Notes: generated from the sequence alone by a model not told the origin. A stretch of 52,064 nt of DNA from Bdellovibrionales bacterium RIFOXYD12_FULL_39_22 (GCA_001770205.1 MEQL01000015.1:1-52064); one strand, 5' to 3'; positions 92-48,913 are shown, numbered from the stretch's first letter. Program-made: numbers and translations.

Positions 92-270
92 GCTGAAATT
101 CTTCGTAAGCACATAAGTACAAAACGTAATTAGGCCATCGATAGTTTGCTGTCAAAAATACAGCTTTAACGTTCTAGTTTTAATGTTTATAATAAATTAG
201 CATAATTAATTTGCAAAATTGGCCAGTAGAATTAATCGTATCGTATTTCAAATTACGGAGTTTTATAGAT

Positions 271-1665
271 ATGAGATTGCACGGGAAAATAGGCACTAGA
301 GTTTTGAAAAAATTTGAAGGTTTTTCTTTTGTTGAAATCATGGTTGCCGTCGGACTTACTGGAATGATCTCATTAGGAACAGTTAAAATTATTGACATGA
401 TGAACAGAGGGCAAAAGAATTTAACTCAGCATGTGACAACAAATAGGCTTGATTTTGAAATTATGATGACATTGATGGATAAATCAGGCTGTGAATTGAC
501 AATGAATGGAATAACGCCACCCACGGTAACTGGCGACTCGTTAACCCTTGCCGATCACGGAATAATTGCTCGTGGTGATAGATTAATTACAACTACAGAT
601 TCTGCATTGCCACAAAATGTTCATGATTTTGCACAAGGTGGGATAATGATTCACGAGAGTACCTCTATCCTCAAGGACAGGGATTCAGACTCGTTAGCGC
701 CGGGAGATGGAATTCCAAATCACTACATGTTGAATTTGATGTTTAGAAAAAGGGCCTCGTCAGTTGGCGCAGACTCGATCCCTGTAAAAATCCCGCTATG
801 GGTAATTCAGGATAATGGTGTAGATGGAACAATAACTACATGTTTTACACAGGAAGATGCCTATGTACAGGCGGCATGCGCTTCGCTTTTGGGAACATTA
901 GAATACGGTTATTGCAAGCGATTGCAAATTTTTCAAAGTGGTGTACCTGTTCCGGCAATACCACCTGCTGACGATAATTATTCTATGAGCTTGTTTGGAA
1001 ATTTTTTTGTTAATGGAGAAGGTTCTGGGGCGGGCATAATTTTTCAGGATACTTTGGATGATACTGAGATTGATATAAGAGGTGGGGATTTTTCCGATAA
1101 TAAAATTGCAATGGCCTCAGATCGTATCGCAGGGCAGTTAGTACTTAATGCCGACAATAGTTTTGATTCCACAAAGGGTTATGCAAAATTATTCCTTCTC
1201 GGGAATGAAAGTGTTGAGCTTAGAGCACCTATTTATCATTTTAAATCATTAGATGGGGGGAATACATTTTTAACTGTTACTGATGGCCCTGCCGTTTTTA
1301 ACTATGGACTTACAATAGCTGCTGGTCAATCTATTGGTTTTGCCTCCGATAAATCACAAAAAAAAGAAATTAGTCCTTTGGTCAAAGTTTTAGAAAAAAT
1401 TGAAAAAATTAGCGGGGTAAGTTTTCGCTGGAAAGACTCAAATCAAAAGGATATTGGGGTGATTGCACAAGATATTGAAAAAGTATTTCCTGAATTAGTT
1501 GCCACAAATGGTGAAGATGGAAAACTTATGGTAAAATATCCTCAGCTATCTGCAGTCTCTATTCAGGCCATAAAAGAGCTTCATAAAGAAAATAGATATC
1601 TTCTACAAGAAGTTCAAAGCTTAAAAAAATATCTTTGTGATCGAGATGGGAAGTTTTGCAAGTAG
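271..1665 (+). CDS. Type IV prepilin-like N-terminus fused to a fibre body and a C-terminal peptidase S74 intramolecular chaperone domain
   Basis: KKFEG|FSFVEIMVAVGL class III signal with E5; C-terminal SDKSQKKEI...GVSFRWK...IGVIAQDIEKVFPELV...AIKEL plus coiled coil; ATG 271 has GGAG upstream (ORF track starts at TTG 211). Confidence 0.85.
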   Translation: MRLHGKIGTRVLKKFEGFSFVEIMVAVGLTGMISLGTVKIIDMMNRGQKNLTQHVTTNRLDFEIMMTLMDKSGCELTMNGITPPTVTGDSLTLADHGIIARGDRLITTTDSALPQNVHDFAQGGIMIHESTSILKDRDSDSLAPGDGIPNHYMLNLMFRKRASSVGADSIPVKIPLWVIQDNGVDGTITTCFTQEDAYVQAACASLLGTLEYGYCKRLQIFQSGVPVPAIPPADDNYSMSLFGNFFVNGEGSGAGIIFQDTLDDTEIDIRGGDFSDNKIAMASDRIAGQLVLNADNSFDSTKGYAKLFLLGNESVELRAPIYHFKSLDGGNTFLTVTDGPAVFNYGLTIAAGQSIGFASDKSQKKEISPLVKVLEKIEKISGVSFRWKDSNQKDIGVIAQDIEKVFPELVATNGEDGKLMVKYPQLSAVSIQAIKELHKENRYLLQEVQSLKKYLCDRDGKFCK

Positions 1666-1671
1666 AGTTTG

Positions 1672-2055
1672 TTAAGTGAATAGATTCCAGCCAATGTCTG
1701 GCCCCAAATATTGAAGAGTAAAATGTTTGGTTTCATCGAGGTTGATCTCTTTTTCAACGATAATGTCGCGAACAGTTCCCATAACTTTTTGACCATTTGA
1801 TAAGATGATGGGGCCATTTCGCCATTTTGTCTTTAGCACATAAAAATGAATTACGGTGGTGATTGCTTCTGGATTAGCAGGCAAAATTATCTTTGCATCA
1901 CCTACAAGGGTATGAGTGGCCGTTTCATTATCTGTAATTTTAATCTCTTTTTTTGCAAATAAATATAACGGGGCATCTTTAATCTTTTGCCCGATAGTCG
2001 CTTTGCCTGCAATTGCGGCCGCAAAAAGAGTCGTCAAAAAACTTCTTCGCTCCAT
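1672..2055 (-). CDS. Tat-signal protein carrying one phage tail-fibre-type repeat
   Basis: MERRSFLTTLFAAA twin-arginine-type signal; IILPANP...ILSNGQKVMG...FTLQYLGPDIGW resembles the LPxxP...NGxxIxG...LxY...GW repeat of T4-like long tail fibres. Confidence 0.6.
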   Translation of the reverse strand: MERRSFLTTLFAAAIAGKATIGQKIKDAPLYLFAKKEIKITDNETATHTLVGDAKIILPANPEAITTVIHFYVLKTKWRNGPIILSNGQKVMGTVRDIIVEKEINLDETKHFTLQYLGPDIGWNLFT

Positions 2056-2145
2056 AAAGTTCCCGTTGAAATTAAATCGGATATCAATTACCCTACTAGA
2101 GTATTTGTTTGGTTTTTATCTGTCAAAATTTACCTGGAGCTATTT

Positions 2146-2703
2146 ATGGCGTACTACTTAACAACGGCAAATATCCATGTTCCTCCAGCGACTTCAACAG
2201 TGGCCACAGCTGGAACAGGAAATGGTTTAGCGGTAACGGATGGAACTAATGTACCCGCGGGTAATTTTTCAGCAAACAAGGTTTTCAATGCTGTTTGGAA
2301 TGATGTTGCAGATTTTCAATTGTTGAATGACAAATTTATTCCAGGAAAGTGCTATGTCGATCACATAGAAGGTGCACGAATTGCATCACAGCGCTGTCAA
2401 ATGGGGGTAATTGGAATTGCCTCGGATACCTTTGGATATGGTGTCGGTTCAGGGGCAAATGAGAGTGAAGTTCCTATTGCGATTGCCGGTTGGGTTCTTG
2501 CTTTTGTAGATCAAGAATACCCATGTGGAACACCACTGACATGTAATGAGAACGGAGAATTGACAGAGATGTCGTTGGAAGAGAAAAGGGATTATCCAGA
2601 AAGAATAGTCGGTATATATAAAAAACCAGAACGCAATAAAGAGTTTGGGCCAAATAAGAATAAAATCCTGGTAAATGGGCGACACTGGGTTAAGGTCAAA
2701 TAA
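2146..2703 (+). CDS. Short Thr/Ala/Gly-rich segment fused to a peptidase G2-like autoproteolytic chaperone domain (185 aa)
   Basis: GGAG then ATG 2146; ANKVFNAVWNDVADF...GVIGIASDTFGYGVG...VPIAIAGWVLAFV resembles phage tail-spike C-terminal NAVWNDYAE domains. Confidence 0.65.
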   Translation: MAYYLTTANIHVPPATSTVATAGTGNGLAVTDGTNVPAGNFSANKVFNAVWNDVADFQLLNDKFIPGKCYVDHIEGARIASQRCQMGVIGIASDTFGYGVGSGANESEVPIAIAGWVLAFVDQEYPCGTPLTCNENGELTEMSLEEKRDYPERIVGIYKKPERNKEFGPNKNKILVNGRHWVKVK

Positions 2704-3345
2704 TTAGTCTCTTTTAAAAATCAGTCGGGCCACTTCACAATAGTTAAATCCAAATATTTTGCCATCAGATTCGTTGGTAATTTTTATTCCAGATAAACTA
2801 CATGGATGCGTGTCATCTTCTTTTATCTCACCTATATATCTTCGACACAGCTTCACTTTTGTTTCAATATACTTAGAAATATCAAATCCAACATTGAAAT
2901 GATGTTCGATAAATGACCAATCGGAACTACCTGGTATTTTATATTGATAAAACTCTCGAACAGAACACTTTCTAATTGGGCGACAGGTTAAACGGAGACT
3001 TTCGCCAACCACCTGATGATCTCGATGCAAATCACTTTCGCAGGGGCCAAATACAACATCAGGCATATATGTATTAACTTCTTCTTGAAGAATTGAGACA
3101 ACTTCTCGGAAATTGTTATGAAGTGTTAAGTCTGGAATCTCAAAAATTTGATGTGGAATTTTAAGTTCCAACATATTTTCGACAAAAGCTTTTTTTCTAT
3201 GCGTTGAATCTTCTGCGCTCCTTCCGTTACACAACACAATCGCCCTTATCGTGTTCACAGTAGAATATCTGGCCAAAGATCCTCCCAACCCAAACTCAAT
3301 ATCATCTAAATGTGCACCAACCATTAAAATTTTTCTATTTTCCAT
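2704..3345 (-). CDS. PIG-L/LmbE family de-N-acetylase
   Basis: GAHLDDIE and DLHRDHQ zinc-binding motifs. Confidence 0.9.
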   Translation of the reverse strand: MENRKILMVGAHLDDIEFGLGGSLARYSTVNTIRAIVLCNGRSAEDSTHRKKAFVENMLELKIPHQIFEIPDLTLHNNFREVVSILQEEVNTYMPDVVFGPCESDLHRDHQVVGESLRLTCRPIRKCSVREFYQYKIPGSSDWSFIEHHFNVGFDISKYIETKVKLCRRYIGEIKEDDTHPCSLSGIKITNESDGKIFGFNYCEVARLIFKRD

Positions 3346-3809
3346 TCAACATTATCCCACCCAAGCCTAATAAATCTCACTCCTTTTTTCTGTATTCCTT
3401 CCAAGACATTTTTTATAAAAGTCTTTCTATCGAAAGGAGAATACATTGGAATGCCTAAGGCCTTGCATAATTGCTCATCATCATCGATTAGATGCCCTCT
3501 TCCGGCCACACTATAACACCCATTGTGGCCAGCGTTAACAAAAATAATAGATCCAAAATTTTCAGCAAATCCCTTAATATTGAATTTAATCTGTTCATAC
3601 GCCTTATATATAACAAATCCGGCCACACCATAAATGATTACTTTCTTTCCTTGGGATGCTAGTCCTGCTGCGATATTGACCATGTTAGATTCCTGAACGC
3701 CGCAGTTTATTAAATTACACTTCGTTTCAAATCCCCACATATCACAGTGAAGAAGATAAATGTCATCACACTTCTGACGACTTAAGAAATAGTGCAAGGT
3801 CTTTCTCAT
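3324..3809 (-). CDS. Transketolase-like pyrimidine-binding subunit (short)
   Basis: INCGVQESNMVNIAAGLASQGKK, KAYEQIK motifs; lacks the C-terminal domain. Confidence 0.85.
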   Translation of the reverse strand: MRKTLHYFLSRQKCDDIYLLHCDMWGFETKCNLINCGVQESNMVNIAAGLASQGKKVIIYGVAGFVIYKAYEQIKFNIKGFAENFGSIIFVNAGHNGCYSVAGRGHLIDDDEQLCKALGIPMYSPFDRKTFIKNVLEGIQKKGVRFIRLGWDNVEWKIEKF

Positions 3810-5435: not shown

Positions 5436-6044
5436 ATGCAAGATAAAGTTAAATTAAGTATTTTAATATTAACACATAATAGGCCTATATTGTTTCAAAG
5501 GTGTATTGGTTCGGCACTAGAAAACAGGCCAAGTGGTGTAGAAATTATTGTCAATAATGATTCACAAGACATTAAAGAAATTCCAGGCGCTAAATATTTC
5601 TATGAAAAACACGATGACTTATCTCTGGTTTATAAGTTTTTATTTGATAATGCAAAAGGTGAATTTGTATATTTTCTCGAAGATGACGACTATCTCATGA
5701 AGAACTTCTATAAGGTAGTTATGGGTATTAAGCAAAACACTATCTTTCGATATTTTCCTGAAAAAAACATTAAGCTGTACTACGAGTACTTCAAAGATGA
5801 AGGAAAGTTTAAAACTGAATTTCAGCTGGGCCAAATTATATTTAAAAAAGAAACGGTAAAGAATTTTCCAATAGGAAATAGATTAGATAATGATTTTTTG
5901 CTTTATCTTGAAGCGAATGCAAATGAAAAATTTATAAAAAACGAAGCCTGTCTTTACGTTCAAACTCTCGATGGCAAAGATAATATTAGTTATCCATTGT
6001 TAAACAGAGATGTTCGATTTGTTGGAGATGGATGTGGAATATAA
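5436..6044 (+). CDS. Glycosyltransferase family 2
   Basis: LSILILTHNRP, EIIVNNDS, AKGEFVYFLEDDDY (DxD). Confidence 0.9.
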   Translation: MQDKVKLSILILTHNRPILFQRCIGSALENRPSGVEIIVNNDSQDIKEIPGAKYFYEKHDDLSLVYKFLFDNAKGEFVYFLEDDDYLMKNFYKVVMGIKQNTIFRYFPEKNIKLYYEYFKDEGKFKTEFQLGQIIFKKETVKNFPIGNRLDNDFLLYLEANANEKFIKNEACLYVQTLDGKDNISYPLLNRDVRFVGDGCGI

Positions 6045-6972
6045 TAGGCAATATGATAAATCACACAAAATACAAAGGCTCTATGTTCACTGGGATGTAA
6101 GTACTCAATGTAACTTTAACTGCTCATACTGTTATTCGCTTGCAGATTATTATTCTGAGTGGAACAGAATTGATTCTTGGGCCAGGCAGAAGTTAGTTAT
6201 CAGAAATATTTCAAAATCGCACCTGCCTGTTTTTTTAGGCCTTCTTGGTGGAGAGCCAACAATTCATCCTAACTACGAGGAGCTGGTTCGATTATGCCAT
6301 GAAGCTATTTCGACTCAAAAAGATGGAAGGTTATATATTACGACCAACGGTTCTCGGCCAACGAATTGGTTTGAAAGGCACAGATTCTATGAGAATACGT
6401 ATTTTTTATGGAGTGCACATTTTGAATATGAAAAATATTATGGTTTAAACTTCGAGTTAATGATCAACAATATTAAAATTATGAAGGAAAAAGGATTTCG
6501 AAATAAGGTTAATGTCATGCTTATTCCAGATAAGCAGCAATGGCCCAAAATTCATAAATTAGTCGATGAATTGGAAAAACTGGGGGTTGAGATTCATCCA
6601 CATTTTCTCTATGAGAAAGGTAATGTACACAGATTGCATGAATATTCCGATGAGTTTTATGATGAATTTGCAAGGTTTCAAAATTATCCGGGGCAATTTA
6701 TTTTTGAGGGGCCAACTGATAACCATGCCTACAACGACTATGACATATTTCATAATAAGCATACTTGTTTTACTGGATGGGATTGTTGGAATAATAATTA
6801 TGAAATTAACTATAAAGGCAAGGTGACTCGTTTTTGTTTTAAAGAAAATAGTGATTTAATAACTAATTTTAATTTTTTTAAGAATATTAAAGAAGTGCTT
6901 CCCTTGCAATGCCCCCACGAGACATGCAACTGTGATGGATTGCTGAAAATATATAAGGAAAAAATTGTTTAA
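6010..6972 (+). CDS. Radical SAM protein with C-terminal Cys motif
   Basis: CNFNCSYC, LLGGEPT, TTNGS, terminal CPHETCNC; true start may be GTG 6034 (GGAG 6 nt upstream). Confidence 0.92.
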   Translation: MFDLLEMDVEYNRQYDKSHKIQRLYVHWDVSTQCNFNCSYCYSLADYYSEWNRIDSWARQKLVIRNISKSHLPVFLGLLGGEPTIHPNYEELVRLCHEAISTQKDGRLYITTNGSRPTNWFERHRFYENTYFLWSAHFEYEKYYGLNFELMINNIKIMKEKGFRNKVNVMLIPDKQQWPKIHKLVDELEKLGVEIHPHFLYEKGNVHRLHEYSDEFYDEFARFQNYPGQFIFEGPTDNHAYNDYDIFHNKHTCFTGWDCWNNNYEINYKGKVTRFCFKENSDLITNFNFFKNIKEVLPLQCPHETCNCDGLLKIYKEKIV

Positions 6973-7858
6973 CTTTGACTCTAACACTCAATTTGATTCA
7001 GTCGGTAAAGATTACCCAATGGCCGAGTTTAGTTGGGCGATAACGAATTCATGTAACTATAATTGCAGTTATTGTTACGCAAAAAAATCAATGGAGAATT
7101 CCAAGGATGGGGATACAAGTTATAAATTTATACTTCAGAGATTGAAAATGTGTCAGGTGGTTTTTGATATAGCGCTGGTTGGAGGTGAGCCCACTAGACA
7201 TCCTAAGTTACAATTTATTATAGATGAGCTGGATAAAATAGAAAATTGCAGAGTACTAGAAATCTATTCTAACTTTACAAGGCCTGTCGATTATTATTTT
7301 AAATGGAGAAACATAAAAAAGTTGAATTTGAAAATGTCATATCACTCAGAATATCATGACAATTTTATAGGTAAGCTAAAAAAAGCAATTGAAGAAAAAA
7401 AGACCAATTTTTTGGTGCTTATAAATTTAAGTCCTAATGATAAATATTGGAACAACACGGAAGAGATTTTGAAGCTATGTAAGAATAATGGCATTGAATA
7501 TGAGATTAATTATTTATTAAGTACAGAAACTGTGCAAATAAACTATACAGAAAAGTTTTATGAATTTTTTGATGATTATATAACTGATAATATGAACGCA
7601 GAAGTTGAGCATATCATTGGCAATAAAATATACTCCATTCCAGAATCAAAAATCTTTAAATTAGGTCTATCATATCGAGGAATGAGTTGTATCCCCAGAA
7701 TGTATAGAATAGAAAGTAGCGGGGATATTATCAATAGCTGTAGCGGTAAAAGGCCAAGGTTAGTTATAAGAGAAGAAGAACTTGCTCAGAGCTACATTTG
7801 TCAGTACCAGTCTTGTGGTTGTAGCGCAATGCTGCTATTTAATAAGGTAAGAAAATAA
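6965..7858 (+). CDS. Radical SAM protein with C-terminal Cys motif (paralog of 22063-22959)
   Basis: CNYNCSYC, VGGEPT, SYHSEY, terminal CQYQSCGC. Confidence 0.92.
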   Translation: MFNFDSNTQFDSVGKDYPMAEFSWAITNSCNYNCSYCYAKKSMENSKDGDTSYKFILQRLKMCQVVFDIALVGGEPTRHPKLQFIIDELDKIENCRVLEIYSNFTRPVDYYFKWRNIKKLNLKMSYHSEYHDNFIGKLKKAIEEKKTNFLVLINLSPNDKYWNNTEEILKLCKNNGIEYEINYLLSTETVQINYTEKFYEFFDDYITDNMNAEVEHIIGNKIYSIPESKIFKLGLSYRGMSCIPRMYRIESSGDIINSCSGKRPRLVIREEELAQSYICQYQSCGCSAMLLFNKVRK

Positions 7859-8741: not shown

Positions 8742-9344
8742 TTAAAAGTGAGAGTAAAATTTTGTGAGAAAATTTTCTGTTTTTCTGCGAATCTCTTCAA
8801 TTGAGTTTTCACTATTAATATGGCCAGAAAGTGTTTTGATTGGTTGAAACAAATATGATGCTCTTAGCATTTTTTCTTTTGTATTTAAGTAATTTTCAAG
8901 TAGAGAAATGAGATCCTCGTCACCTGTTTCCAGGATTTCTAAGTATTTTTCCTCGCGATTTGATTCCGTTATTACATAACCCCTATCACCTAATTCATTC
9001 ATTGAGCAAAGATGCCGATACAAAACATATCCGGTGTTTTTAGCAAGATTTAAATCAATGACATTCTGTATTTTTTTAATCGCAGATTCTTTAACTTCCT
9101 GCAATTCATTATTGCCCACGGACCTGATCTTGATTTCGTCCGGTTGCACGGAGTCATGTTTTAAAGGCCTATGGATAAAAATATGTTTATTCTTTTTTAG
9201 AGCATCCGCAATTATTTTACTTGCAGCATGTGATAGAGATAAAAATTGGCCTTTATTAAGATCGAGGTAATACCCCTTGACTGAAGCAAGTACTTTCCAA
9301 TAATCCCCCTTGTCCTCTACGAATGCCCAATTATGGTTTAACAC
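8742..9344 (-). CDS. Hypothetical protein (paralog of 14728-15360)
   Basis: 200-aa ORF; shares VEDxGxYWxVL and NELxxRGYxxTESN...EILxTxDxxLI with 14728-15360. Confidence 0.8.
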   Translation of the reverse strand: MLNHNWAFVEDKGDYWKVLASVKGYYLDLNKGQFLSLSHAASKIIADALKKNKHIFIHRPLKHDSVQPDEIKIRSVGNNELQEVKESAIKKIQNVIDLNLAKNTGYVLYRHLCSMNELGDRGYVITESNREEKYLEILETGDEDLISLLENYLNTKEKMLRASYLFQPIKTLSGHINSENSIEEIRRKTENFLTKFYSHF

Positions 9345-9385: not shown

Positions 9386-9838
9386 TTAACCATAGTTGCA
9401 TCCACAGTCATTGTGGCAACCACAAACCTGATTACAGCCACAATCGGAATTACAAACACAACCTCCACTAGTCATGCTATTATAATGAGCTGCAATTTGA
9501 TTCAGTACTTTACTGGTTATTATTGTTCCTCGAGGGGTGTTTGATATTTCATCTACAATATCAAATGAAACAGCAAAAGGGTTGCTTCCTGCGCTATATG
9601 GTGGGAAACTACCAAATTTATTTTTTGCATTGGTAATAGCAGTTTTTAAGTTGGTAAGGTCACTGGCAGAAATAGAATCTCCTGCGGCAATAGAAAAGGA
9701 TAGAGATGACAAAGAAAGGGCCCCAGTAGCGACATGGCCGGCCCCGCATCCGATGTGTTGGGCACTTGGATCTGGAGCTGGAGAGGCCGTACCGTCCGGA
9801 AGCTTGTGCAAATTGCAATGTGAACCAGAGCAAGACAT
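9386..9838 (-). CDS. Cys-rich protein, putative radical SAM substrate/precursor
   Basis: Strong RBS (GAGGAG); C-terminus CVCNSDCGCNQVCGCHNDCGCNYG; directly downstream of two rSAM/SPASM genes on the same strand. Confidence 0.8.
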   Translation of the reverse strand: MSCSGSHCNLHKLPDGTASPAPDPSAQHIGCGAGHVATGALSLSSLSFSIAAGDSISASDLTNLKTAITNAKNKFGSFPPYSAGSNPFAVSFDIVDEISNTPRGTIITSKVLNQIAAHYNSMTSGGCVCNSDCGCNQVCGCHNDCGCNYG

Positions 9839-9850
9839 AAGATTTCTCCT

Positions 9851-11017
9851 CTATGCTATCTCTTTAAAATTGATCTCCTGTACAGCTCGATCAATTTCTC
9901 CTAATGCTTTAAAATAAAAGCACCTATTCAAGCAAGTACGATCCGTCCATTGTTCATCAAAACTTGCTTTTTTGCTTACATCAAGGCTATTGACAGGACA
10001 AATCATGCAAGTCGTTGCCACGCAATTCTCACATTCATTATACTTCTTTGAGCTTAATATCTTTCCAAATTTTAAAGAAAGCTCTGCAATATTGTCAATA
10101 AATTTATCATCATAGATTGTTGTCGTGGGCAGTCTATCCTTATTCTTGGAATATAAAATGCCATGACAGGCGTGAACTTCTCCAGCAACATCGATTATTG
10201 CCATATTGAAACCAGCAGTGCATGTAGTACGAGATGCTCCACCACCAAACCAAGAGCAAAGGAATCTGCCGTTTTGCTTAAAAAAATCAATCTCCTTTTT
10301 TGCCATAGAAAGAAGCTGTACCCGAAACCGTTTAATTAGCTCTTCTTCGCAAAGAAGGGACGCAGAAACAGCTTGGTCAATAGTTGGTGCGTACCTTATA
10401 ATACAGTTGGGATTAATTTTTCGAAACTCTTCCTGAAGATTGTAAAGGTCATTCCAGGCCGATGAAAAGTTAGATATTTCTTCTAGAGGTATGGTTGATT
10501 TGAAAGTTAAATCTATCCCTTTTTGAGCGAGTGCCTTAGAATTATTTATAATTATATCAGCAGTTTTTTTTCCGTTCTTGGTTAGGCGATAGCGATCATG
10601 AATAGGTTGGCCATCGTAGGATACCTGTATTCGAAGTCTTCTTGTATCTACATTGTCTACAATCTTGAAAAGATTGCTGCGATTAAAACCATTAGTATAT
10701 ATATGAAATGAAACATTTTCATGAGAAGAATATTTATTCATTACTTCAACAATAATTGCATGATTTAGGGTTGGCTCTCCTCCCCAGAAGGAGATATTTA
10801 AAGAATTATAATATTTTTGAAACCATTTATGGTCGCTTAAAATTTCATCAATTCTTTTAAAAAGGATGTCTTGATCATATTTGATTTCTTTCTCTCTCGC
10901 CTTCTCTCCCTCAAAGCAATATGCACAATTTAGATCGCAAAGATTAGTGGTGCATATTTCAAGAGTAAAGTTTCCTCTTTTATTGCTGGTGTGAGATTGA
11001 GAAAGAGTCATTCTCAT
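9851..11017 (-). CDS. Radical SAM/SPASM domain protein
   Basis: CDLNCAYC, FWGGEPT, SYDG; SPASM CTAG...GEVHACH...CENCVATTCMICP...C. Confidence 0.93.
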   Translation of the reverse strand: MRMTLSQSHTSNKRGNFTLEICTTNLCDLNCAYCFEGEKAREKEIKYDQDILFKRIDEILSDHKWFQKYYNSLNISFWGGEPTLNHAIIVEVMNKYSSHENVSFHIYTNGFNRSNLFKIVDNVDTRRLRIQVSYDGQPIHDRYRLTKNGKKTADIIINNSKALAQKGIDLTFKSTIPLEEISNFSSAWNDLYNLQEEFRKINPNCIIRYAPTIDQAVSASLLCEEELIKRFRVQLLSMAKKEIDFFKQNGRFLCSWFGGGASRTTCTAGFNMAIIDVAGEVHACHGILYSKNKDRLPTTTIYDDKFIDNIAELSLKFGKILSSKKYNECENCVATTCMICPVNSLDVSKKASFDEQWTDRTCLNRCFYFKALGEIDRAVQEINFKEIA

Positions 11018-11234
11018 TACCCGCTTTGTCTTTAAAATTGATAATTTCGTTGATCACTGCCTCAAGCCTATCCTTAGATATAACGCTTTCAGGTTCAATA
11101 ATTTTGATAAGCTTCAAAGCATAATCGAATAAATTATTGGCCGCTTCTTGATTGCAGCTTAACATATAATAACCGGCCTTTCCTAAATGCTCTGCTGATC
11201 TGAATATATTTTGCTGGAATTCGCTACGCGTCAT
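10980..11234 (-). CDS. Small hypothetical protein (84 aa) between two SPASM genes
   Basis: Overlaps both neighbours; GAG RBS; predicted helical. Confidence 0.65.
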   Translation of the reverse strand: MTRSEFQQNIFRSAEHLGKAGYYMLSCNQEAANNLFDYALKLIKIIEPESVISKDRLEAVINEIINFKDKAGNENDSFSISHQQ

Positions 11235-12234
11235 AGAGCTCCCTTTGAATTAAATCGCAAAATTTTGAACTGTCTTTTAAGGAAGCTACCATGCGAGAAA
11301 TATCATTGTAAATATGTTTATAGATGAGACAAAGTTCGGCAATAGGCCCTTTATTATTAATATTTTCGTGCAAACATCCTCTGCGACAAAACTTAATAAT
11401 TTCACAAGAAGCACAGCCAGTCATATTTGTATAGTTTGGTATTTGGCCAATTACGTCCTTATTTCTAAGTAGAAAGCATGGAATAATTCTGCCGTCGAGA
11501 TAAGAAAAATGAGATTTTCCAGCTCCACAATATGTCGGATTGCTTTTTTTGGCAAATGCCCGAATAAAATCCCGTAAGTGGTGCAAGATGATTGGAGGAA
11601 TTGGGTAATTATCAACATTTAAAATATACCAGTTGATCAATTCAGAAAATCCTTTATTAAAAAGCAACACGTCGCTTCTGCTCCATGCGCCAATATCTTT
11701 AATCAACTCCATTCCTGGTGATATCCCAAAAACGTCTAAAATGTATAAATGGTTTTCTAGCAGATTATTACATTCGCCCGATATCATGGTATGAATAGTG
11801 CAATCGTTAATTTTAAAAACAAGATCTTTTTTTTTCAAAAGAGAAGAAAGCGTCTTCTCTTTCTTTGGGGTAAGACGATTGTTATTTTGCCAGAGGCCAT
11901 CGAATGAAAGGGAGATTTTGATTTTATGTTCATTGATAAAATCAATTTTGTCTGCAGTTAAAAGCAGTCCATTTGTCGGTATAAGAAAATCATTGCCATC
12001 ATCTTTTAATGTATTAATGATAAGTTTTATAAGATCCCAGTGAATTAAAGGTTCTCCTCCAAAAAAATCAATCCGGATCGTTTCTTTATCAGGGATTGCT
12101 GACTTAAATTTTTGATATTCTAAAAAAAAATTATCAAGAGATATTGGAGTAAAAGATATATTGTTTTTTTTAAAATAACAGTAGGAGCAAGAAAGATTGC
12201 ATTGTCCGGATAATGTTATGCTTAAGGTGATCAT
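11224..12234 (-). CDS. Radical SAM/SPASM domain protein
   Basis: CNLSCSYC, FFGGEPL, SLSFDG; CGAG...GRIIPC...CASCEIIKFCRRGC...C. Confidence 0.93.
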   Translation of the reverse strand: MITLSITLSGQCNLSCSYCYFKKNNISFTPISLDNFFLEYQKFKSAIPDKETIRIDFFGGEPLIHWDLIKLIINTLKDDGNDFLIPTNGLLLTADKIDFINEHKIKISLSFDGLWQNNNRLTPKKEKTLSSLLKKKDLVFKINDCTIHTMISGECNNLLENHLYILDVFGISPGMELIKDIGAWSRSDVLLFNKGFSELINWYILNVDNYPIPPIILHHLRDFIRAFAKKSNPTYCGAGKSHFSYLDGRIIPCFLLRNKDVIGQIPNYTNMTGCASCEIIKFCRRGCLHENINNKGPIAELCLIYKHIYNDISRMVASLKDSSKFCDLIQRELYDA

Positions 12235-12308: not shown

Positions 12309-13127
12309 TTATTTCATCTTACTAAAGTTTCTAAGACAAAAGATTGTGGGAGTTATTTTTTTGGAAAATGAGTTGCATTTGAGGCAGTAATCATTATATT
12401 TTCCGCCTTTATGTTCTAGAATCATTTCCTTTCTTTTTGCTGAAAGATATAGTTTTTCTAGTGAGGTACTAAAAACATTTCCTAAGATCATATAAGAAGG
12501 TAAATCTCGGGCCTTTCCAGAACATGTGCAATACACAAAATCTCCATTGGATAGTATTCTTGGTAACCACAACATCCCACACAATCCATTTTTCATAACA
12601 ATTCTATCACGCTTTGTTTTATAGGTATCAGGTAGTGTTTTATCATCAGTGTTATCATAATTGAAATCATAAGAGAGAGGCCTGGGATCAACAAGAATGT
12701 GCAGGCCCTTCCTTTTTGCTTCAGCGATATTGTCTTCGATTCGGTCAAACATTGCCCTGTTTTGTTGAGTCATATATGAAAATGTTTCGTAGTTTCCGCA
12801 TCCGTAGTGTGAAATAAAAATATGTAGTTTTTTGTAGCGCAATAATTTGTCGATATTAACCAGACTGAAATTAGTGTGAAATTCAACTTTTTCTATTTTA
12901 GATTTCTCAATATAATCTAGCTTTTCATATATTTCATTATCTAAAAATATTTCTCCAGTACTGGGAGTTAGTTTTAATCTACTGACTCCAAGGTGGATGG
13001 CATCATCAATGATCGGATAAAAAATAGAATTGGGAATGGTTTCTCTCGGCTGATCAATTTTGTTCAGTCGAGCTCCACAAAAGAAGCAGTCGAAATTGCA
13101 TCTGTTAATTAATTCGATGGCCAGCAT
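12309..13127 (-). CDS. Radical SAM protein with Twitch/SPASM domain
   Basis: CNFDCFFC, TGEIF, CGMLW...NGDFVYCTC...LGNV...CLKC. Confidence 0.9.
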   Translation of the reverse strand: MLAIELINRCNFDCFFCGARLNKIDQPRETIPNSIFYPIIDDAIHLGVSRLKLTPSTGEIFLDNEIYEKLDYIEKSKIEKVEFHTNFSLVNIDKLLRYKKLHIFISHYGCGNYETFSYMTQQNRAMFDRIEDNIAEAKRKGLHILVDPRPLSYDFNYDNTDDKTLPDTYKTKRDRIVMKNGLCGMLWLPRILSNGDFVYCTCSGKARDLPSYMILGNVFSTSLEKLYLSAKRKEMILEHKGGKYNDYCLKCNSFSKKITPTIFCLRNFSKMK

Positions 13128-13717
13128 GGATGTTTGTCTTTTGCATTATTGGTTGATTCTAGTAAGTTTTCCACGGGAATTCTCTCATTTCCAAAAAAAA
13201 GAGTGATTTGATTTTTTCTAAGTATCTCTTTGTATAGGGGATATTCTTTGTTATACGGGAAGCAAAAAGATTTAATGTCTAAATCATTTTCTCTAAAAGA
13301 GGAGATCATCTTGTTGGTGTCGATGGTAAGTTCATCAAATAGTTTTCGTAATCCAATTTTTCCAAGATCGTATTTTTGATGTCTGTGGGAATGTCCTCCA
13401 ATGTGACAGTTTTTTTCTTTGCTTATTTCCTTGATCTGGCCCCACTTCATATAATTTGTTAAATCGCCATTATTAAAAAAACGCTCATGTGCTTCTCGAC
13501 ATTTTAAAAGATGTTGGTTTTGAGAGGTGTTCTCTGGACAAATGATATTCGTGCTAATAAAAAAATATTTCGTAGTATTTATTTTTAAAATTTTTTCAAG
13601 ATAAGCATACTGGCCGAATAGTCCATCATCAAAGGTCAAAACGTATTGATCTAATGGCAATTTAAAGACATCTTCTCGTATTTCGTGAATCATTAGGATT
13701 GGCTTGGATATACTCAT
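13109..13717 (-). CDS. Polysaccharide deacetylase (NodB-like)
   Basis: LTFDDG, IGGHSHRH, FCFPY motifs. Confidence 0.9.
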   Translation of the reverse strand: MSISKPILMIHEIREDVFKLPLDQYVLTFDDGLFGQYAYLEKILKINTTKYFFISTNIICPENTSQNQHLLKCREAHERFFNNGDLTNYMKWGQIKEISKEKNCHIGGHSHRHQKYDLGKIGLRKLFDELTIDTNKMISSFRENDLDIKSFCFPYNKEYPLYKEILRKNQITLFFGNERIPVENLLESTNNAKDKHPCWPSN

Positions 13718-14718
13718 TGTCTAAAGCTCAAAACATCAATTATTTTTTCGCCTAAAATTGGATAGGTCTCCTGGATTCCCTTCAGTTGTTTTTCAATCCC
13801 ATCACAAATAAAAAAATATTTACAGTCGAAACATTTTTTATACTTATGGTAGGATGTTATTCTTTTTTCATGTGCTCGTTTAAAATAATCTTCTATGGAT
13901 AATGGCCCTGAAGGCAATCGATCGACATTATAAGCAATTATATTCCAATCTCTTTCGTCATAAATATGCTGATAGGTTCCAACTACGTATTTTTCATATC
14001 CAGTCATGAAACAAAATGGAATATATCTTACATTGATCTCAATTTTTTTATCTATTAAGTCTATTGCCTTGCGAATATTTATACCAAGCTGCTCATATTT
14101 CACTGGAGGCATTTTTTCTGCGTCCCCCCAAAAATTTAATGGAAGAAAATTAATTTGCTGAGGAGAAAGATTATTAATTAGGGCGGCGTAGTCACCCAGA
14201 TGATTCAAGTTGTCGGACATTACGGTACAATTAATTCGAATATCGATTCCGAGTTTGAATGCGTTTTCAATGGCGATTAGAATTTTTTCAAAACTCTTTG
14301 GCCGCCCAACGATAGAATCATGTATTTGAAAACAGTGGCCGTGTAGGCTGAATAGGATTTCACTTAGGCCATGCTCTTTTGATTGTTGTAAAAAATTAAA
14401 ATTTGAAAAATTCCATCCATTAGAAAGAGTACTAATTTTTTTGAATTTTAAACTACGGCAATAATCGAGAATATCAAACCAGTTGGAATGTAAGCTGCTT
14501 TCGCCTCCGCTGAGATCAATCTCGTCAATTCCAAAGGCCTTAAGTTTTATTGCCCGCTGCTTTATGATATCAACTTCGGTTTTTATATGAAGTTTGTGCT
14601 TATAATAGCAAAAACAGCAGTCGCAGTTGCAAAAAGTTCCTGTGTCAAGCTTTGCTCTTTTTCCAAAATTGCTATTTTTTATTTCAAGTTTTGTGGAGCT
14701 AAAATAGTTATAGTTCAG
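13714..14718 (-). CDS. Radical SAM protein, ~334 aa, probable CTG start
   Basis: The frame of ORF 13714-14220 is open upstream: LNYNYFSS...KLDTGTFCNCDCCFCYY...DLSGGES...TLSNG...FSLHG; no ATG/GTG/TTG before the motif; GAGGG lies 6 nt before CTG 14718; C-terminal CFDCKYFFICDG. Confidence 0.85.
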   Translation of the reverse strand: MNYNYFSSTKLEIKNSNFGKRAKLDTGTFCNCDCCFCYYKHKLHIKTEVDIIKQRAIKLKAFGIDEIDLSGGESSLHSNWFDILDYCRSLKFKKISTLSNGWNFSNFNFLQQSKEHGLSEILFSLHGHCFQIHDSIVGRPKSFEKILIAIENAFKLGIDIRINCTVMSDNLNHLGDYAALINNLSPQQINFLPLNFWGDAEKMPPVKYEQLGINIRKAIDLIDKKIEINVRYIPFCFMTGYEKYVVGTYQHIYDERDWNIIAYNVDRLPSGPLSIEDYFKRAHEKRITSYHKYKKCFDCKYFFICDGIEKQLKGIQETYPILGEKIIDVLSFRQ

Positions 14719-14727
14719 AGTCTGCCC

Positions 14728-15360
14728 TCACTCTGCACAGGTTGAGTAGCGAGAATAGTACTTATTGAGAAAATCATCGACATTTTTCTGAATTATTTCC
14801 GGAGAAACTTCTTGATTGTTTTTAAGTCTAAGCTCTTCAAGAGAATTGTATAATGTGGCGGAGTCATTTATCTGTTCTTTATCTTCTAAGTACTGCTCCG
14901 TTAAGGCAATCAGCTCCTTATCCTCAGTTTTTAGAATCTCTTCATGTTTTTTCTTTTTATTGCTTTCGGTAAAAAAATATCCTCTCTCAACGAGTTCGTT
15001 GTTTGCGCACATGAAACGATAAAAAACGTTGCCGCTATTTTTTGCCAGCTCGGGAGTAACAATAAGTCTTGCTCGTTTAATGGCCGCAAGGCGGATTTCT
15101 TCAATATTGTTGGGGTCGATATCAAATATTTCAATTTGTGAGGCCTGGACCTCGCTTGTTTCTAGCGGTTTTTTTATTATTACCTTTTTTTCGTAAAGAA
15201 TGGCGTTATCAATAAGTTCATAGCATATGTTAGATAGCTTGAGGTAGTTTTGATTTTTTTCATTAAGATCGAAAGTGTTTTTGGAGACGCTTAAAACATG
15301 CCAGTACTCTCCGCAATCTTCAACGTTTGCTAAATTATAGACTAACATACGCCCTCGCAT
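14728..15360 (-). CDS. Hypothetical protein (paralog of 8742-9344)
   Basis: Shared motifs as above; probable start at MLVYNL. Confidence 0.8.
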   Translation of the reverse strand: MRGRMLVYNLANVEDCGEYWHVLSVSKNTFDLNEKNQNYLKLSNICYELIDNAILYEKKVIIKKPLETSEVQASQIEIFDIDPNNIEEIRLAAIKRARLIVTPELAKNSGNVFYRFMCANNELVERGYFFTESNKKKKHEEILKTEDKELIALTEQYLEDKEQINDSATLYNSLEELRLKNNQEVSPEIIQKNVDDFLNKYYSRYSTCAE

Positions 15361-23235: not shown

Positions 23236-24981
23236 ATGGAATCGCAAATTAACAATACAAGTAAATTAAAAATTAAAGTGGGAATAAGAATGGGCATTTT
23301 AACTCTTCTGCTTGTTGCTTTTGCTCAGGCAGAAGAATTTTTTCCACCTCCTCCAGGGCTCGGAATGTCAATGAGTGATGACCAAAAAGCAATCATGGAA
23401 TCTATGAGACAACATCAAGAACTCCGTCCAGAGATTGCCCGTATTATTGAATCTGCAGGAGGCCCTGAAAAAGCGATGAGTAATCCAGAAGTGAATAGTA
23501 AAATAAAGGCCTTGTTGGTAGAGAAGACAATTCCAAAAGCATCAACTTCCAAACCGGAAGAGAAGAAAGAAGAAAAAAAGGAAGAGAAAAAAGAAAATAT
23601 TACAGCAGACGAGTGTAAAGATGGTTGTTCTAAAAATCTAAAGTCAATTATTACTAATTTACGGGCAATCAGAGGTGATAGTAATGAATATGTTCGACTA
23701 GATGGAAAAATACCTACTGTATGTAGAGATAAAATTTCATTAGCGGTTAACTGCATTTCAAAAGACAATATAATTAAATTTCAATTTACAGAGATTGTTA
23801 AAGATGGGTTCCGTTGTCTCAATGAAAACAAAGCAAAGTGCCTAGATGATTCTAAAGAGGAGTGTTTAACCATCTATAAGCTATTTATGGAAGATGCAAA
23901 AAAATTTGATTCTAAAATATCTGTATCAACAGAAAATGAGACATGTAAAAACATGCATTTTGAGAATGTAAAAATTGGAGTACAGGGAAAATTATTTTCG
24001 GAAACAGATGAATTTCTAGCTGCTAAAATACAATCACAAAGCGACGATGATTTTTGTGTTCTATGCGTAGACTCTGAGCATTCCGAGATTGAACAGTTGC
24101 AGTCAGAAGTGAATAAACTCAAACAAATTATAGACAAGCAGCAGCAAGATTTATCTCATCCTGTTGTTAGTGAAAAGGTGGGGCCACCCAACGCCAATTC
24201 AAGTGCTTTGGAAAAAGCTGTACCGTCAAATGCTCCACCAATGGCGTTAGTTAAGTCAGAGATCCATCCACCCAAAGAGCGTCCTGAAGGAGATAAGCAA
24301 GACAAACCTCGGAAAAAAAATAGATCAAAGAAATGTCCTCCTATTCCTGGCGATGATGAAGAAATGGGCCCTCCGTTTGGTGATGATTTTGCGATGGATG
24401 ATGAATTTCAAGATGCTCTTGATAGCGAAATGAAAAAGTGTAAGAAGCAAGGAAAATTTAAGCGAAAAAGACCTAGTAAGTCAATGATTAGGGGTGGTGG
24501 AGATCGAAGAGAAATGATGGAAATGAACCCAAGTATGGGCATGGGATCTGACAATATGAATTCATCTGGTCCTTCAAATAATAATATGGCCTCAATGATG
24601 AATTCGATGATGCCTCAGAGTAGCATAGGTTATGGCAGCATGGGATCAATGATGGGCCATGGCAATACAGGTTCAATGATAGATTATAGTAAGCTTAGCT
24701 CAATGATAGATTATAGTAAGCTTAGCTCAATGATAGATTATAGTAAGCTTAGCTCAATGATAGATTATAGTAAGCTTGGCTCAATGATAAATTATAACAA
24801 TATGGGCCCAACAATGGGCCATGGCAATATTGGTTTAATGATGAATTATAACAACATAGGTTCAACAATGGGTTACGGCAGCAGAGGTTTTTCTTTGTTA
24901 GGTAATGAAAGCTACAATTTAAATTCATATTACAATGGAAATCAGGAAGGATCTGGGTATAATTTTGGTAGGAGTTATTAA
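23236..24981 (+). CDS. Secreted hypothetical protein with Cys-containing core and Met/Gly/Ser-rich repetitive tail
   Basis: Signal-like [16 protein letters not shown] repeats; SMIDYSKLS repeats. Confidence 0.75.
24673..24780 (+). repeat. 27-bp tandem repeat x4 (in frame, SMIDYSKLS)
   Basis: TCAATGATAGATTATAGTAAGCTTAGC at 24673, 24700, 24727 and, with one mismatch, 24754; degenerate copies on both sides. Confidence 0.95.
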
Positions 24982-30164: not shown

Positions 30165-30507
30165 TCACACACTCAGGGAATCTGATATGAGGAAGATTTT
30201 AGATATTAAAAACTATTCCCTACTAGGCCATGGCAATGAGCGATCGCATTAGATAAGCAGTATCCCAGTATGTTGCACATAATTTTTTAGGTTATGAATA
30301 TCGATTGCTCAGCAATCATCATGCTAGACGTTAGAAAAATTAAAACAGATCATGTTGCAGACTTGAATAAACTTCTGTCTAGGAGCGACTGGGTCGTGAG
30401 ACATTTTCAAATCAATTTCGATTGTTGATTGTGACCATTTTCTAGATCATACTTTAAAACCAAGTGTCCACTTAGGGGTTGATATATGTAAAAATACGTG
30501 TGGGACG

Positions 30508-33873: not shown

Positions 33874-33887
33874 ATGGCAACTCCGTA

Positions 33888-34787: not shown

Positions 34788-34796
34788 ATGGCCGCC

Positions 34797-35564: not shown

Positions 35565-35596
35565 ATAATTCTCCAGCAAGGCGATGCGCCGATCAA

Positions 35597-48671: not shown

Positions 48672-48913
48672 TGGCCATTTTTGTTGTGTACAAAAGCCAC
48701 TGCTGGTTGTCTCTAATTTTTAATTAAAGCAATCACTGCCTGTTTGTGCGCATTTCCCCTCTTGACTCATGATTAATTGCTGGTAAAGGGCCAAGTATTA
48801 TTTGTGTCATAGTTCCCCCTTCTTCAATTTATTGAAAATATTATCGCATTGCTGGTATTGAGAATCGATCTGTTGTATTATGTTGTTTTTTGTATTGAAA
48901 GTAGTTTTTTTAT

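Follow-up and report, generated by a model that had tools for sequence, protein, structure and literature searches.

A cysteine-ladder gene beside two radical SAM genes

The window – the whole 52,064-nucleotide stretch of Bdellovibrionales bacterium RIFOXYD12_FULL_39_22 DNA analyzed here – encodes on its minus strand a 150-amino acid protein (9386..9838 (-)) in which a Cys/His motif at the N-terminus and a cysteine core at the C-terminus flank a middle predicted to form three helices. We refer to it as the CxC-ladder protein. Its open reading frame confirmed what a first-pass annotation had described: the C-terminus, GGCVCNSDCGCNQVCGCHNDCGCNYG, contains eight cysteines in four CxC units with a strict six-residue period, and the N-terminus reads MSCSGSHCNLH...HIGCGAGH. 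The core, delimited by regular expression and alignment, comprises 23 residues (CVCNSDCGCNQVCGCHNDCGCNY; residues 127–149, 9392..9460 (-)) and bears the four CxC rungs at period 6; the protein ends one residue past it, at G150. A six-frame regular-expression scan of the whole 52-kb window found such a CxC run in this reading frame only. The N-terminal motif read from the same frame (CSGSHCNLH ... CGAGH; residues 3–35, 9734..9832 (-)) is restricted, within the window and the loci scanned, to this protein and its Halobacteriovorax ortholog.

Altogether the protein contains 11 Cys and 6 His, with the cysteines confined to residues 3–31 and 127–147 and none in residues 36–126. We identified no Pfam or NCBIfam match, no signal peptide and no ferredoxin-type CxxCxxCxxxC motif in it. 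An AF2 monomer (pLDDT 66) has a usable helical middle, with helices at residues 58–76, 89–99 and 109–125; the cysteine tail and residues 26–34 fall below pLDDT 50. A Foldseek search with this monomer returned no BFVD match at E≤1e-3, and a homotrimer prediction (three copies, alignment A1), which scored 0.01 with the partner's own fold uncertain, carries no weight for or against a trimer. In the DNA, a Shine-Dalgarno sequence AGGAG (9846..9850 (-)) abuts the stop codon of the upstream radical SAM (rSAM) gene and is separated from the ATG by a 7-nt spacer. With the TAG at 9851–9853 and the ATG at 9836–9838, 12 nt separate the two genes, so the strong ribosome-binding site and short gap claimed earlier are both borne out.

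That upstream gene encodes rSAM/SPASM enzyme A (9851..11017 (-), 388 aa; Pfam Radical_SAM, Fer4_12 and a weak SPASM match), and rSAM/SPASM enzyme B follows at 11224..12234 (-) (336 aa; Pfam Radical_SAM). Both carry a radical-SAM motif and a SPASM auxiliary cysteine set. The CX3CX2C motif of enzyme A (C27/C31/C34) and its seven auxiliary cysteines (C266, C284, C329, C332, C337, C340 and C366) are invariant with homologs from Halobacteriovorax and phage CP220. Enzyme B likewise shares its CX3CX2C (C12/C16/C19) and SPASM-type cysteines (C253, C274, C277, C283, C287 and C302) with all homologs, and C236 with bacterial copies only.

The earlier idea that these enzymes are thioether maturases stands as far as resemblance goes – the nearest curated model is PapB and the nearest structure CteB – but both score below the cut-off of every curated family. 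Against the PapB model (NF047865, the best NCBIfam match), enzyme A scored 97.1 bits (E 1e-27) and enzyme B 94.8 bits (E 6e-27, model positions 4–328 of 330), with a cut-off of 340. The next curated models were QhpD, TIGR04463 (the CrpC family), the CXXX-repeat maturase and the SCIFF maturase. For TIGR04463, enzyme A scored 59.4 bits against a cut-off of 525 and enzyme B was outside the best 25 families listed; for TIGR04115 (CXXX-repeat) the scores were 58.4 and 44.3 against 350, and the repeat in the putative target here reads CxCxxx. For QhpD/QhpC (TIGR03906) they were 53.8 and 70.3 against 453, and Pfam/NCBIfam scans of the window turned up no genes for dehydrogenase subunits. CteB was the best PDB match of both the enzyme A profile (5WGG/5WHY, residues 101–423, E 1.2e-13) and enzyme B (E 2.2e-13). 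Both enzymes lack an N-terminal RRE, the CX3CX2C lying at residue 27 or 12 and the CteB alignment beginning at residue 101 or 99, and no PqqD-like protein was found. Because all scores fall far below every curated cut-off, the reaction of enzymes A and B cannot be read from family membership.

An 84-aa reading frame (10980..11234 (-)) overlaps both enzyme genes and has 29% identity to a 71-aa reading frame in the same place in a Halobacteriovorax locus (L001). Its product, which has no Pfam match up to E 10, is possibly a substrate-handling partner. We rejected it as an RRE, given the absence of a Pfam match at that threshold and its dissimilarity to the small reading frames beside the phage enzymes. 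A 200-aa partner (8742..9344 (-)) is encoded 42 nt downstream of the CxC-ladder gene, has 41% identity to the product at the same position in L001 (10173–10781) and matches phrog_25260. Its AF2 model (pLDDT 83) combines an N-terminal beta part with long helices, and Foldseek searches against PDB and BFVD returned nothing at E≤1e-3. The weak fold leads were a phage 'receptor binding protein' and DUF4376 (E 0.0025–0.06), besides the DnaK substrate-binding domain (E 0.018).

Upstream of these genes the same minus-strand string continues across 12309..14718 (-) with an rSAM/SPASM gene (12309–13127), a polysaccharide deacetylase gene (13109–13717) and a further rSAM gene with a CTG start (13714–14718). 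The first gene of the string (14728..15360 (-)) encodes a 210-aa paralog of the 200-aa partner (40% identity) and is preceded by a promoter-like site at 15401–15373(-) that agrees with 11 of 12 consensus positions, a consensus match only. The island as a whole contains nine rSAM genes, a glycosyltransferase, deacetylases and epimerases. An S74 fibre is also encoded in the window, at 211–1665.

Conservation of the cassette and relatives of the ladder protein

A scan of 185,579 species genomes yielded 14 pattern matches, two of which were confirmed by tblastn. Both belong to Halobacteriovorax species that are closely related to each other, and their loci (L001 and L002) share 91% DNA identity, so that the cellular cases represent two independent lineages only. 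All three cellular genomes found to hold the family, including that of the window, contain the same cassette: rSAM-B, the small reading frame, rSAM-A, the CxC-ladder protein and the 200-aa protein. In this order, amino acid identities between the window and Halobacteriovorax are 45, 29, 50, 47 (C-terminal part only) and 41%. The five genes overlap or lie 1–42 nt apart, and the island around them is arranged differently in the window and in Halobacteriovorax. The proposed linkage of the CxC-ladder protein to two rSAM/SPASM genes thus recurs as a tight cassette across both lineages. In the CxC-ladder gene, 27 codon differences between the two Halobacteriovorax species are synonymous and 2 are non-synonymous, and the four other genes follow the same synonymous-dominated pattern; all five cassette genes are under purifying selection.

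To define the family, we used a HMMER scan that gave 61 matches at E≤1e-3. Sixty were non-self, representing clusters at 50% identity, one of which (P0012) is repeat junk. We aligned 56, leaving out P0012 and four long proteins of 462–832 aa (P0021, P0045, P0056 and P0061). The 23-residue core is kept in 54 of the 56, so the CxC run is not a product of chance. Its common form, C.CNSDC.CN.VC.C..DCGCNY, includes seven invariant cysteines (C1, C3, C7, C13, C15, C19 and C21) and an invariant Asn and Tyr (N10 and Y23); C9 (48/54), D6 (51/54) and D18 (36/54, otherwise Asn) are less strict. By regular expression, an N-terminal C..C..[HNY] motif is present in 17 of the 54 core-matching relatives, the window protein included, and CxxH[RHQK] in 42.

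What follows the core links the family to fibres. Directly after it, 30 of 54 relatives have SDxxLK, a motif of the S74 intramolecular chaperone; in 20 of these it is borne by a tail of only 12–13 aa. Pfam recognizes a complete S74 domain after the core in 10 of 56. In the relatives of 462–832 aa the cysteine module is at the end of fibre-like proteins. The window protein has neither a C-terminal Peptidase_S74 domain (PF13884) nor an SDxxxK dyad; it ends where S74 cleavage would leave a mature end. The view of the protein as a lone precursor is contradicted by these fusions to the chaperone of trimeric phage fibres, which point to a structural role.

We found no entry for the 23-residue core in Pfam, NCBIfam, PHROG or PDB. 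The family profile retrieved nothing below E 0.24 from PDB, and no NCBIfam or Pfam target model matches any of the 56 family members. PF27846 (Pfam 38.1) came up solely as an Atlas lead, with shares of 23% (score 0.84) and 58% (TM 0.46). A word-based protein search with the CxC-ladder protein returned only itself, and with the family alignment six proteins, all unnamed or 'hypothetical'. A description of the family or cassette was not found in literature on radical SAM/SPASM enzymes, CXXX-repeat systems, cysteine-rich fibres, intramolecular chaperones, Firehammervirus or Halobacteriovorax. As far as these searches reach, the family is undescribed, and it is largely of a phage-like fibre type.

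These relatives, together with the gene neighbourhood, make it improbable that the protein is a classical RiPP precursor, with its N-terminal ~125 residues as leader and its 24-residue cysteine core crosslinked, cut and exported as a sacti- or ranthipeptide. Such a precursor would explain a conserved N-terminal part, whose motif recurs in the 17 relatives noted above, joined to a C-terminal cysteine core beside SPASM maturases. Yet the protein is long for this role at 150 aa, and its middle is confidently predicted to be a helical domain. The core is nearly invariant in 54 relatives, whereas RiPP cores diversify, and fibre-length relatives and S74 fusions carry the same module. The first-pass annotation had seen no protease or ABC exporter, and Pfam scans of the window's reading frames agree: none lies in 1–24 kb save the S74 in ORF 211–1665, nor does an immunity gene; SufC (34797–35579) is far off. 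None of the three was present among the listed reading frames of the 20-kb Halobacteriovorax loci, a listing as opposed to a family scan.

Still more improbable is an accessory metalloprotein that would serve the island's rSAM enzymes as a carrier of Fe-S or electrons or as a metal store like metallothionein. Metallothioneins and Zn3Cys9 CXC domains typically contain CxC runs, and a protein this rich in Cys and His adjoins nine Fe-S enzymes. However, the ferredoxin-type motif and any Pfam or NCBIfam match are missing, the predicted helical, cysteine-free middle does not fit metallothionein anatomy, and S74 fusions and fibre-length relatives would make no sense for an electron carrier.

Homologs of the enzymes also occur in phages. 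By tblastn, enzyme A has homologs in 15 Firehammervirus records (29% identity, 97% coverage, E 4e-38), the 200-aa partner has homologs in the same 15 records, and enzyme B matches CP220 gp023 (27%, E 6e-32). In total, 16 of the 25 island genes in the window, these three included, have homologs in CP220-type phages at E≤1e-4. CP220 further encodes, 2.2 kb upstream of the enzyme A homolog, a 534-aa protein (gp140) with (CTCDCNY)n repeats of period 7 and six further CxC[ND]x[ND] motifs; the CxC-heptad protein of CP220-type phages is probably CPT_0180 of PMC2853527, described with a 21-bp repeat. We rejected gp140 as a true homolog: the core HMM misses it among 1,432 phage ORFs, and hhalign gave 20% probability (E 1e-3) over an N-terminal helix motif only. 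The resemblance between the phage and window proteins is one of analogy, with no detectable homology in the core.

A tblastn search of 50,697 phage records with family members did not reveal the core itself, which the BLAST low-complexity filter may hide. Among the queries, P0001, P0026 and P0017 had no match in these records. P0028 matched 45, of which the one inspected (Brucella phage Pr) has an S74 tail without the CxC core, and P0046 matched 54, all from residue 152/153 and hence in the S74 tail only. Given this result and the 30 of 54 relatives that resemble fibre ends, most relatives may be without an rSAM neighbour.

A proposed role for the cysteine tail

A fibre-type family and a conserved operon with crosslinking-type enzymes together suggest that the CxC-ladder protein is probably a stapled structural protein and not an antibiotic peptide. 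Our favored reading, to which we assign a probability of roughly 45%, is that of a fibre-related structural protein whose cysteine tail would be thioether-stapled by enzymes A and B. The 150-aa protein would probably be a minimal form of the module that also caps trimeric phage-type fibres. A trimeric, structural character is suggested by the S74 link in relatives and the six-residue period; action of the enzymes on this protein, and thioether formation as their chemistry, are proposals from sequence.

With no signal peptide, the CxC-ladder protein would be made in the cytoplasm. Its C-terminal tail, with four CxC rungs each followed by Asn or His and two of them as C-x-x-D, would still be unfolded at that stage, and the absence of structure in the AF2 monomer fits the access that the enzymes would require. 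The two SPASM enzymes encoded just upstream would then act on the unfolded tail, converting Cys thiols into permanent ranthionine- or sactionine-type thioether crosslinks that, unlike disulfides, would be redox-proof. The 84-aa and 200-aa proteins may help in substrate presentation or assembly, and the product would be a covalently stapled, very stable end-piece. The tail contains CNSD and CHND; C-X-X-Q/D is a motif discussed for CrpA (PMC13692751, partial text), and PapB forms links from Cys to Asp/Glu as well as to a C-terminal residue (PMC12373016, partial text). The first-pass suggestion of a modified protein in place of a released peptide has gained a whole-protein precedent in CrpA/CrpC (PMC13692751, partial text).

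Several points count against stapling. The proposed links come from gene neighbourhood and family resemblance, the enzymes lack the RRE of CteB and CrpC, and they could belong to another pathway, the island having seven more rSAM genes plus sugar enzymes. Moreover, a triple beta-helix with cysteines toward the axis, as suggested by the S74 link, favors metal or disulfide ladders and may be hard to square with intrachain i/i+3 thioether rings.

We weighed whether the CxC rungs face the axis of a trimeric fibre end and there bind metal or, once exported, form interchain disulfides, the rSAM enzymes serving a separate pathway such as sugar or glycan chemistry. The S74 domains and SDxxLK motifs after the core speak for this, since S74 is a chaperone/protease that assists trimeric beta-helical fibres (PMC10769870, partial text), and HxH pairs in T4 gp37 coordinate seven iron ions (PMC11705849, partial text). 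Residues i and i+2 of a strand face the same side, and three six-residue repeats would make 18 residues per turn. The invariant Asn after each rung is like the Asn ladders of beta-solenoids, and the sugar-related genes of the island, with its nine rSAM genes, would accommodate the separate pathway. However, the five genes have stayed together as a compact block in an otherwise rearranged island, and the enzymes are closer to peptide/protein Cys-maturases than to sugar-modifying rSAM enzymes. Disulfides are unlikely where the protein is made, because it has no signal peptide, and we know of no precedent for six-thiolate metal sites stacked four high. On balance we consider metal or disulfide ladders, the main rival to stapling, unlikely.

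Returning to a thioether-stapled tail, a more specific version is doubtful but conceivable: a phage-derived trimeric cysteine-ladder end-cap, stapled in the cytoplasm by two RRE-less SPASM enzymes and common to Halobacteriovorax-like predators and Campylobacter group II phages. If so, it would provide a first function for part of the 11–12 phage rSAM genes and carry RiPP-like thioether chemistry over to structural proteins of virions and cell surfaces. For whole proteins, very few cases of enzymatically made thioether crosslinks are described – QHNDH, MCR, the E. coli ribosome and CrpA (PMC13692751, partial text). If stapling is true, the family would be a second kind of substrate, unrelated and equipped with an enzyme pair of its own, and would show thioether chemistry to be a general route to redox-proof staples. 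New here are an unannotated family of 60 clusters at 50% identity, tied to the phage-fibre S74 chaperone, and a common gene set that offers a testable lead on many rSAM genes of Campylobacter group II phages. In predatory bacteria, the CxC-ladder protein may represent a new component of the surface or of a fibre.

Comparison with known systems

The Campylobacter group II phages CP220 and CPt10 have 11–12 rSAM genes of unknown role, called 'highly unusual' in 2010 (PMC2853527, partial text); a 2025 paper on these phages describes them only in general terms in its accessible part (PMC12398825). They share with the window homologs of enzymes A and B and of the 200-aa protein and have a CxC-heptad protein of their own, but their genes are dispersed, whereas those of the window form a cassette.

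Among S74 fibres – endosialidase, the T5 fibre and the Bdellovibrio MAT fibres (PMC10769870, partial text) – the likeness lies in relatives with the S74 SDxxLK dyad right after the cysteine core. The window, with an S74 fibre of its own, also probably derives from a predator akin to Halobacteriovorax. The window protein differs in being only 150 aa and in having no S74, no signal peptide and no N-terminal MAT domain (~130 aa). MAT fibres have no cysteine ladder, and cysteine is unmentioned in the accessible text of PMC10769870. The HxH iron-binding tips of T4 gp37 and relatives (PMC11705849, partial text) repeat an X-x-X pair along a trimeric fibre end, as the window protein would, a spacing at which both side chains face the fibre axis. 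This likeness is one of analogy: the window protein has Cys instead of His and a strict period of 6.

PapB/PapA and CteB/SCIFF provide the best curated model and the best structure, respectively, and in both systems, as with the putative pairs in the window protein, Cys donors lie upstream of Asp acceptors. The window enzymes score far below the cut-offs and lack an RRE, and the known substrates are peptides of ~40–50 aa with a leader, whereas here the substrate would be a 150-aa folded protein.

Protein-level ranthionine crosslinks are described for CrpA/CrpB/CrpC of Methanococcus voltae, in which CrpA is 28.8 kDa (PMC13692751, partial text). CrpC, a TIGR04463 member, has an RRE at its N-terminus, whereas the window has two enzymes without one, enzyme A scoring 59 bits against 525; the window protein repeats a 6-residue unit (CxCxxx) four times, CrpA a 17-residue unit ten times. 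The hosts also differ – a predatory bacterium and phages as against a methanogen – and the two supplementary spreadsheets of PMC13692751 contain no Halobacteriovorax, Bdellovibrio, Bacteriovorax, phage, virus or Campylobacter. In its organization, as far as the partial text describes it, the Crp system is nonetheless like the window: an SPASM rSAM gene adjoins a gene for a Cys-rich protein that exceeds 100 aa and has its cysteines in C-terminal repeats bearing C-X-X-D/Q, an extra small companion protein is present, the cluster has no protease or exporter, and the product is – for the window, by proposal – a modified protein and not a peptide.

The CxC protein and its adjoining enzymes

The first-pass annotation had proposed that a Cys-rich protein adjoining two radical-SAM (rSAM)/SPASM enzymes is their substrate. 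This 150 amino acid protein is encoded on the minus strand at 9386..9838 of the window, which is low in GC content, and ends in GGCVCNSDCGCNQVCGCHNDCGCNYG – a tail of four CxC units whose eight cysteines follow a strict six-residue period. Three further cysteines and several histidines lie within its first 35 residues. In the DNA, the stop codon of the rSAM/SPASM gene upstream (9851..11017) is at 9851-9853, AGGAG occupies 9846-9850, and the CxC-gene ATG is at 9836-9838; the coordinates, motif, ribosome-binding site, and 12-nt gap initially described for the gene all agree with ORF and DNA. A six-frame regular-expression search found a CxC run of this type in the window only within this ORF. 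In a monomer model, residues 58-125 form three helices and the Cys tail is unstructured. Two readings fit this anatomy poorly: a released RiPP, which we consider improbable, and an Fe-S or metal accessory protein, which ranks below it as very improbable.

A word-based protein search returned nothing beyond the CxC protein itself. An exhaustive HMMER scan of 1.84 billion representatives yielded 61 matches at E≤1e-3, with the self match alone below 1e-10. One match (P0012) was discarded as repeat junk, and four others are long proteins (462-832 amino acids) with the module in their C-terminal part; leaving these out gave an alignment (A1) of 56 proteins. A 23-residue core, C.C[NHD][STA]DC.[C]N.VC.C..[DN]C.C[NH]Y, is present in 54 of the 56. 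Core positions C1, C3, C7, C13, C15, C19, C21, N10, and Y23 are invariant among the 54, while C9 (48/54), D6 (51/54), and D18 (36/54, with N in the others) are less strict. By regular expression, 17 of the 54 have C..C..[HNY] at the N-terminus, in the manner of MxCSGxHCxxH, and 42 have CxxH[RHQK] near the start. Scans of the window protein and family members found no Pfam or NCBIfam model matching the Cys core, and the best E value from a PDB profile search with the family was not below 0.24. The CxC family is real and unannotated.

Both enzyme A (9851..11017, minus strand) and enzyme B (11224..12234, minus strand) contain CX3CX2C and conserved SPASM cysteines, and their mutual identity is only 28%, within the N-terminal core. 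PapB is the best curated model for the two (E 1e-27 and 6e-27, far below its cut-off), followed by models of other maturases that modify Cys in peptides and proteins – QhpD, TIGR04463, CXXX-repeat, SCIFF, and anSME – all far under their cut-offs. CteB is the nearest solved structure to both. Because the alignment of enzyme A covers CteB residues 101-423, the first 100 residues of CteB – its RRE domain – have no counterpart. The Pfam scan identified no PqqD-like protein.

A conserved cassette within an rSAM-rich island

The enzymes and the CxC protein are part of a five-gene cassette. Among 185,579 species genomes we obtained 14 pattern matches, two of which were confirmed: Halobacteriovorax sp. 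CON-3 (locus L001) and ZH2_bin.1 (L002). Their gene order is that of the window – rSAM-B (334 amino acids), a 71 amino acid ORF, rSAM/SPASM-A (407 amino acids), the CxC protein (183 amino acids, MACSGGHCSYHNTG...CGCHY), and a 202 amino acid protein – with identities to the window of 45, 29, 50, 47 (C-terminal 51 residues), and 41%, respectively. Halobacteriovorax provides the closest match to the window cassette, and in both settings the genes overlap or lie 1-42 nt apart. Since L001 and L002 share 91% DNA identity over the first 11 kb, we counted them as one lineage; the cassette is present in three of the three cellular genomes holding the CxC family, which represent two independent lineages. 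Gene order in the remainder of the island differs between the window and L001, which singles out the cassette as the conserved unit. Each of the five genes shows purifying selection; synonymous/non-synonymous codon differences between the two Halobacteriovorax species are 61/12, 13/3, 74/5, 27/2, and 34/5 in cassette order.

The island (2704-22959) contains nine radical-SAM genes (at 6010, 6965, 9851, 11224, 12309, 13714, 18066, 20886, and 22018). It also encodes a GT2 glycosyltransferase, PIG-L and polysaccharide deacetylases, two SDR epimerase-like genes, and a split transketolase-like pair. The radical-SAM gene at 13714-14718 (minus strand), listed by default only as a 168 amino acid ORF (13714-14220), extends as an open frame up to 14718, and its product aligns over the full length with a 343 amino acid Halobacteriovorax radical-SAM protein (55% identity, 339 columns, including CNCDCCFC). 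As its sole available start is CTG at 14718, the start codon is either a rare one or misassigned.

Campylobacter Firehammervirus phages offer a parallel. Enzyme A and the window's 200 amino acid protein (8742..9344, minus strand) each match the same 15 records, and CP220 gp023 is the match of enzyme B. Compared with 1,432 stop-to-stop ORFs from the two parts of CP220 and the five parts of CJLB-13, 16 of the 25 island genes scanned have phage homologs at E≤1e-4 and nine at E≤1e-15, with some rSAM-rSAM matches at superfamily level only. CP220 gp140 (L004, the CP220 locus, 5933-7537; 534 amino acids) carries ...ACLCDCNY(CTCDCNY)n plus six more CxC[ND]x[ND] motifs and lies 2.2 kb upstream of the CP220 enzyme-A homolog; neither the core HMM nor an hhalign comparison established homology between gp140 and the CxC family. 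The gene next upstream of gp140, gp141, shares 43-44% identity with window ORF 3324-3809. CJLB-13 encodes a Cys-repeat ORF of 171 amino acids (L006, the CJLB-13 locus, 30490-31002; 27% Cys, CxxC repeats). Timms et al. counted 11 rSAM proteins in CP220 and 12 in CPt10, a finding they termed highly unusual, and noted the 21-bp intragenic repeat (PMC2853527); a 2025 paper still offers no more than a general account (PMC12398825).

Elsewhere in the window, 23236-24981 (plus strand) encodes a 581 amino acid protein with a signal-peptide-like start, a 10-residue stretch (letters not shown), and scattered cysteines, for which neither Pfam nor PHROG gave a match; its C-terminus is Met/Ser/Gly/Asn-rich with SMIDYSKLS repeats. 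A complete suf Fe-S assembly operon (32243-37021, minus strand; SufB, SufC, SufD-like, SufS, SufE), 20 kb from the island, is ordinary housekeeping. A tmRNA gene (48914-49282, plus strand; Rfam 130.6 bits) encodes the tag ESYDYAMAA, and the 165 amino acid ORF across it (48807-49304, minus strand) is probably spurious. Given the HTH and DUF6036 nucleotidyltransferase-like genes downstream, the tmRNA gene may mark an integration site.

Association with phage-type fibres

Peptidase_S74 (S74), known as the intramolecular chaperone of endosialidase and tail fibres, lies directly C-terminal to the core in 10 of the 56 aligned members by Pfam. By regular expression, SDxxLK stands right behind ...C.C[NH]Y in 30 of 54, comprising 10 long tails and 20 short tails of 12-13 residues (e.g., SDERLKKDIVYC); in 22 the chain ends at the core (≤3 extra residues), and two have other tails. 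The short tails are a remnant, SDxRLKxxIxY[CLI], that keeps the S74 Ser/Lys dyad with the chaperone domain absent. Cys is the last residue in 12 of the 20. S74 acts both as chaperone and as protease, and carries an SDxxxK dyad; it secures productive trimerization of beta-helical fibres, cleaves itself off at the Ser, and is used by Bdellovibrio in its MAT fibres (PMC10769870). Because S74 cuts at the Ser after the core, the window protein, like the Halobacteriovorax ortholog, ends at the would-be mature C-terminus.

S74-bearing members match tail-fibre families in PHROG; in 12 members scanned singly the PHROG matches fall over the S74 tail, with one relative (P0004) alone also matching back over the core. 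The Atlas look-alikes, which count as leads only, are hypothetical proteins from viruses (Uroviricota; feature score 0.90 for the window protein, <0.8 for the ortholog), and one row of the Atlas structural comparison, also lead-level, is a cluster with 91% S74. The CxC core was not found in 50,697 phage records with five family queries, three of which gave no match. The other two queries bear S74. Relative P0046 matched 54 records, all from residue 152/153 onward – the S74 part only. Relative P0028 matched 45 with more of the query covered, and the one record examined, Brucella phage Pr, lacks the CxC core. By these sequence associations, the CxC family is tied to phage-type fibres.

The window also contains an S74 fibre gene (211-1665, plus strand) with a prepilin-like N-terminus (...FEGFSFVEIMVAVGL...), C-terminal Peptidase_S74 (residues 379-430, E 9e-15), and strong PHROG tail-fibre matches; its product may be a predatory bacterium's fibre, either pilin-anchored or pseudopilin-like. 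Adjoining it, 1987-2703 (plus strand) encodes the region's most conserved protein, 68% identical over 148 amino acids to its Halobacteriovorax counterpart (L001 6642-7166). In Halobacteriovorax its gene sits immediately upstream of the cassette; in the window 6.7 kb separate the two. This protein has no Pfam match and a weak PHROG 'tail protein' match (E 0.006).

Possible roles of the Cys tail

The main rival account takes the cysteines to form a metal or disulfide ladder within a trimeric end-piece, with the enzymes serving the island of sugar and rSAM genes. This account, which we consider unlikely, draws on an analogy with HxH iron sites (PMC11705849). We favour, at a probability of roughly 45%, a structural protein related to fibres, with a Cys tail that enzymes A and B would staple. 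This preference rests on the unstructured tail, its CNSD and CHND sequences and invariant C-terminal Tyr, PapB chemistry, and the CrpC precedent. PapB joins Cys to Asp/Glu and even to a C-terminal residue (PMC12373016). The SPASM enzyme CrpC builds ranthionine crosslinks into CrpA, a Cys-rich protein of 28.8 kDa with C-X-X-Q/D repeats (PMC13692751) – a precedent for SPASM-made crosslinks on a whole Cys-rich protein.
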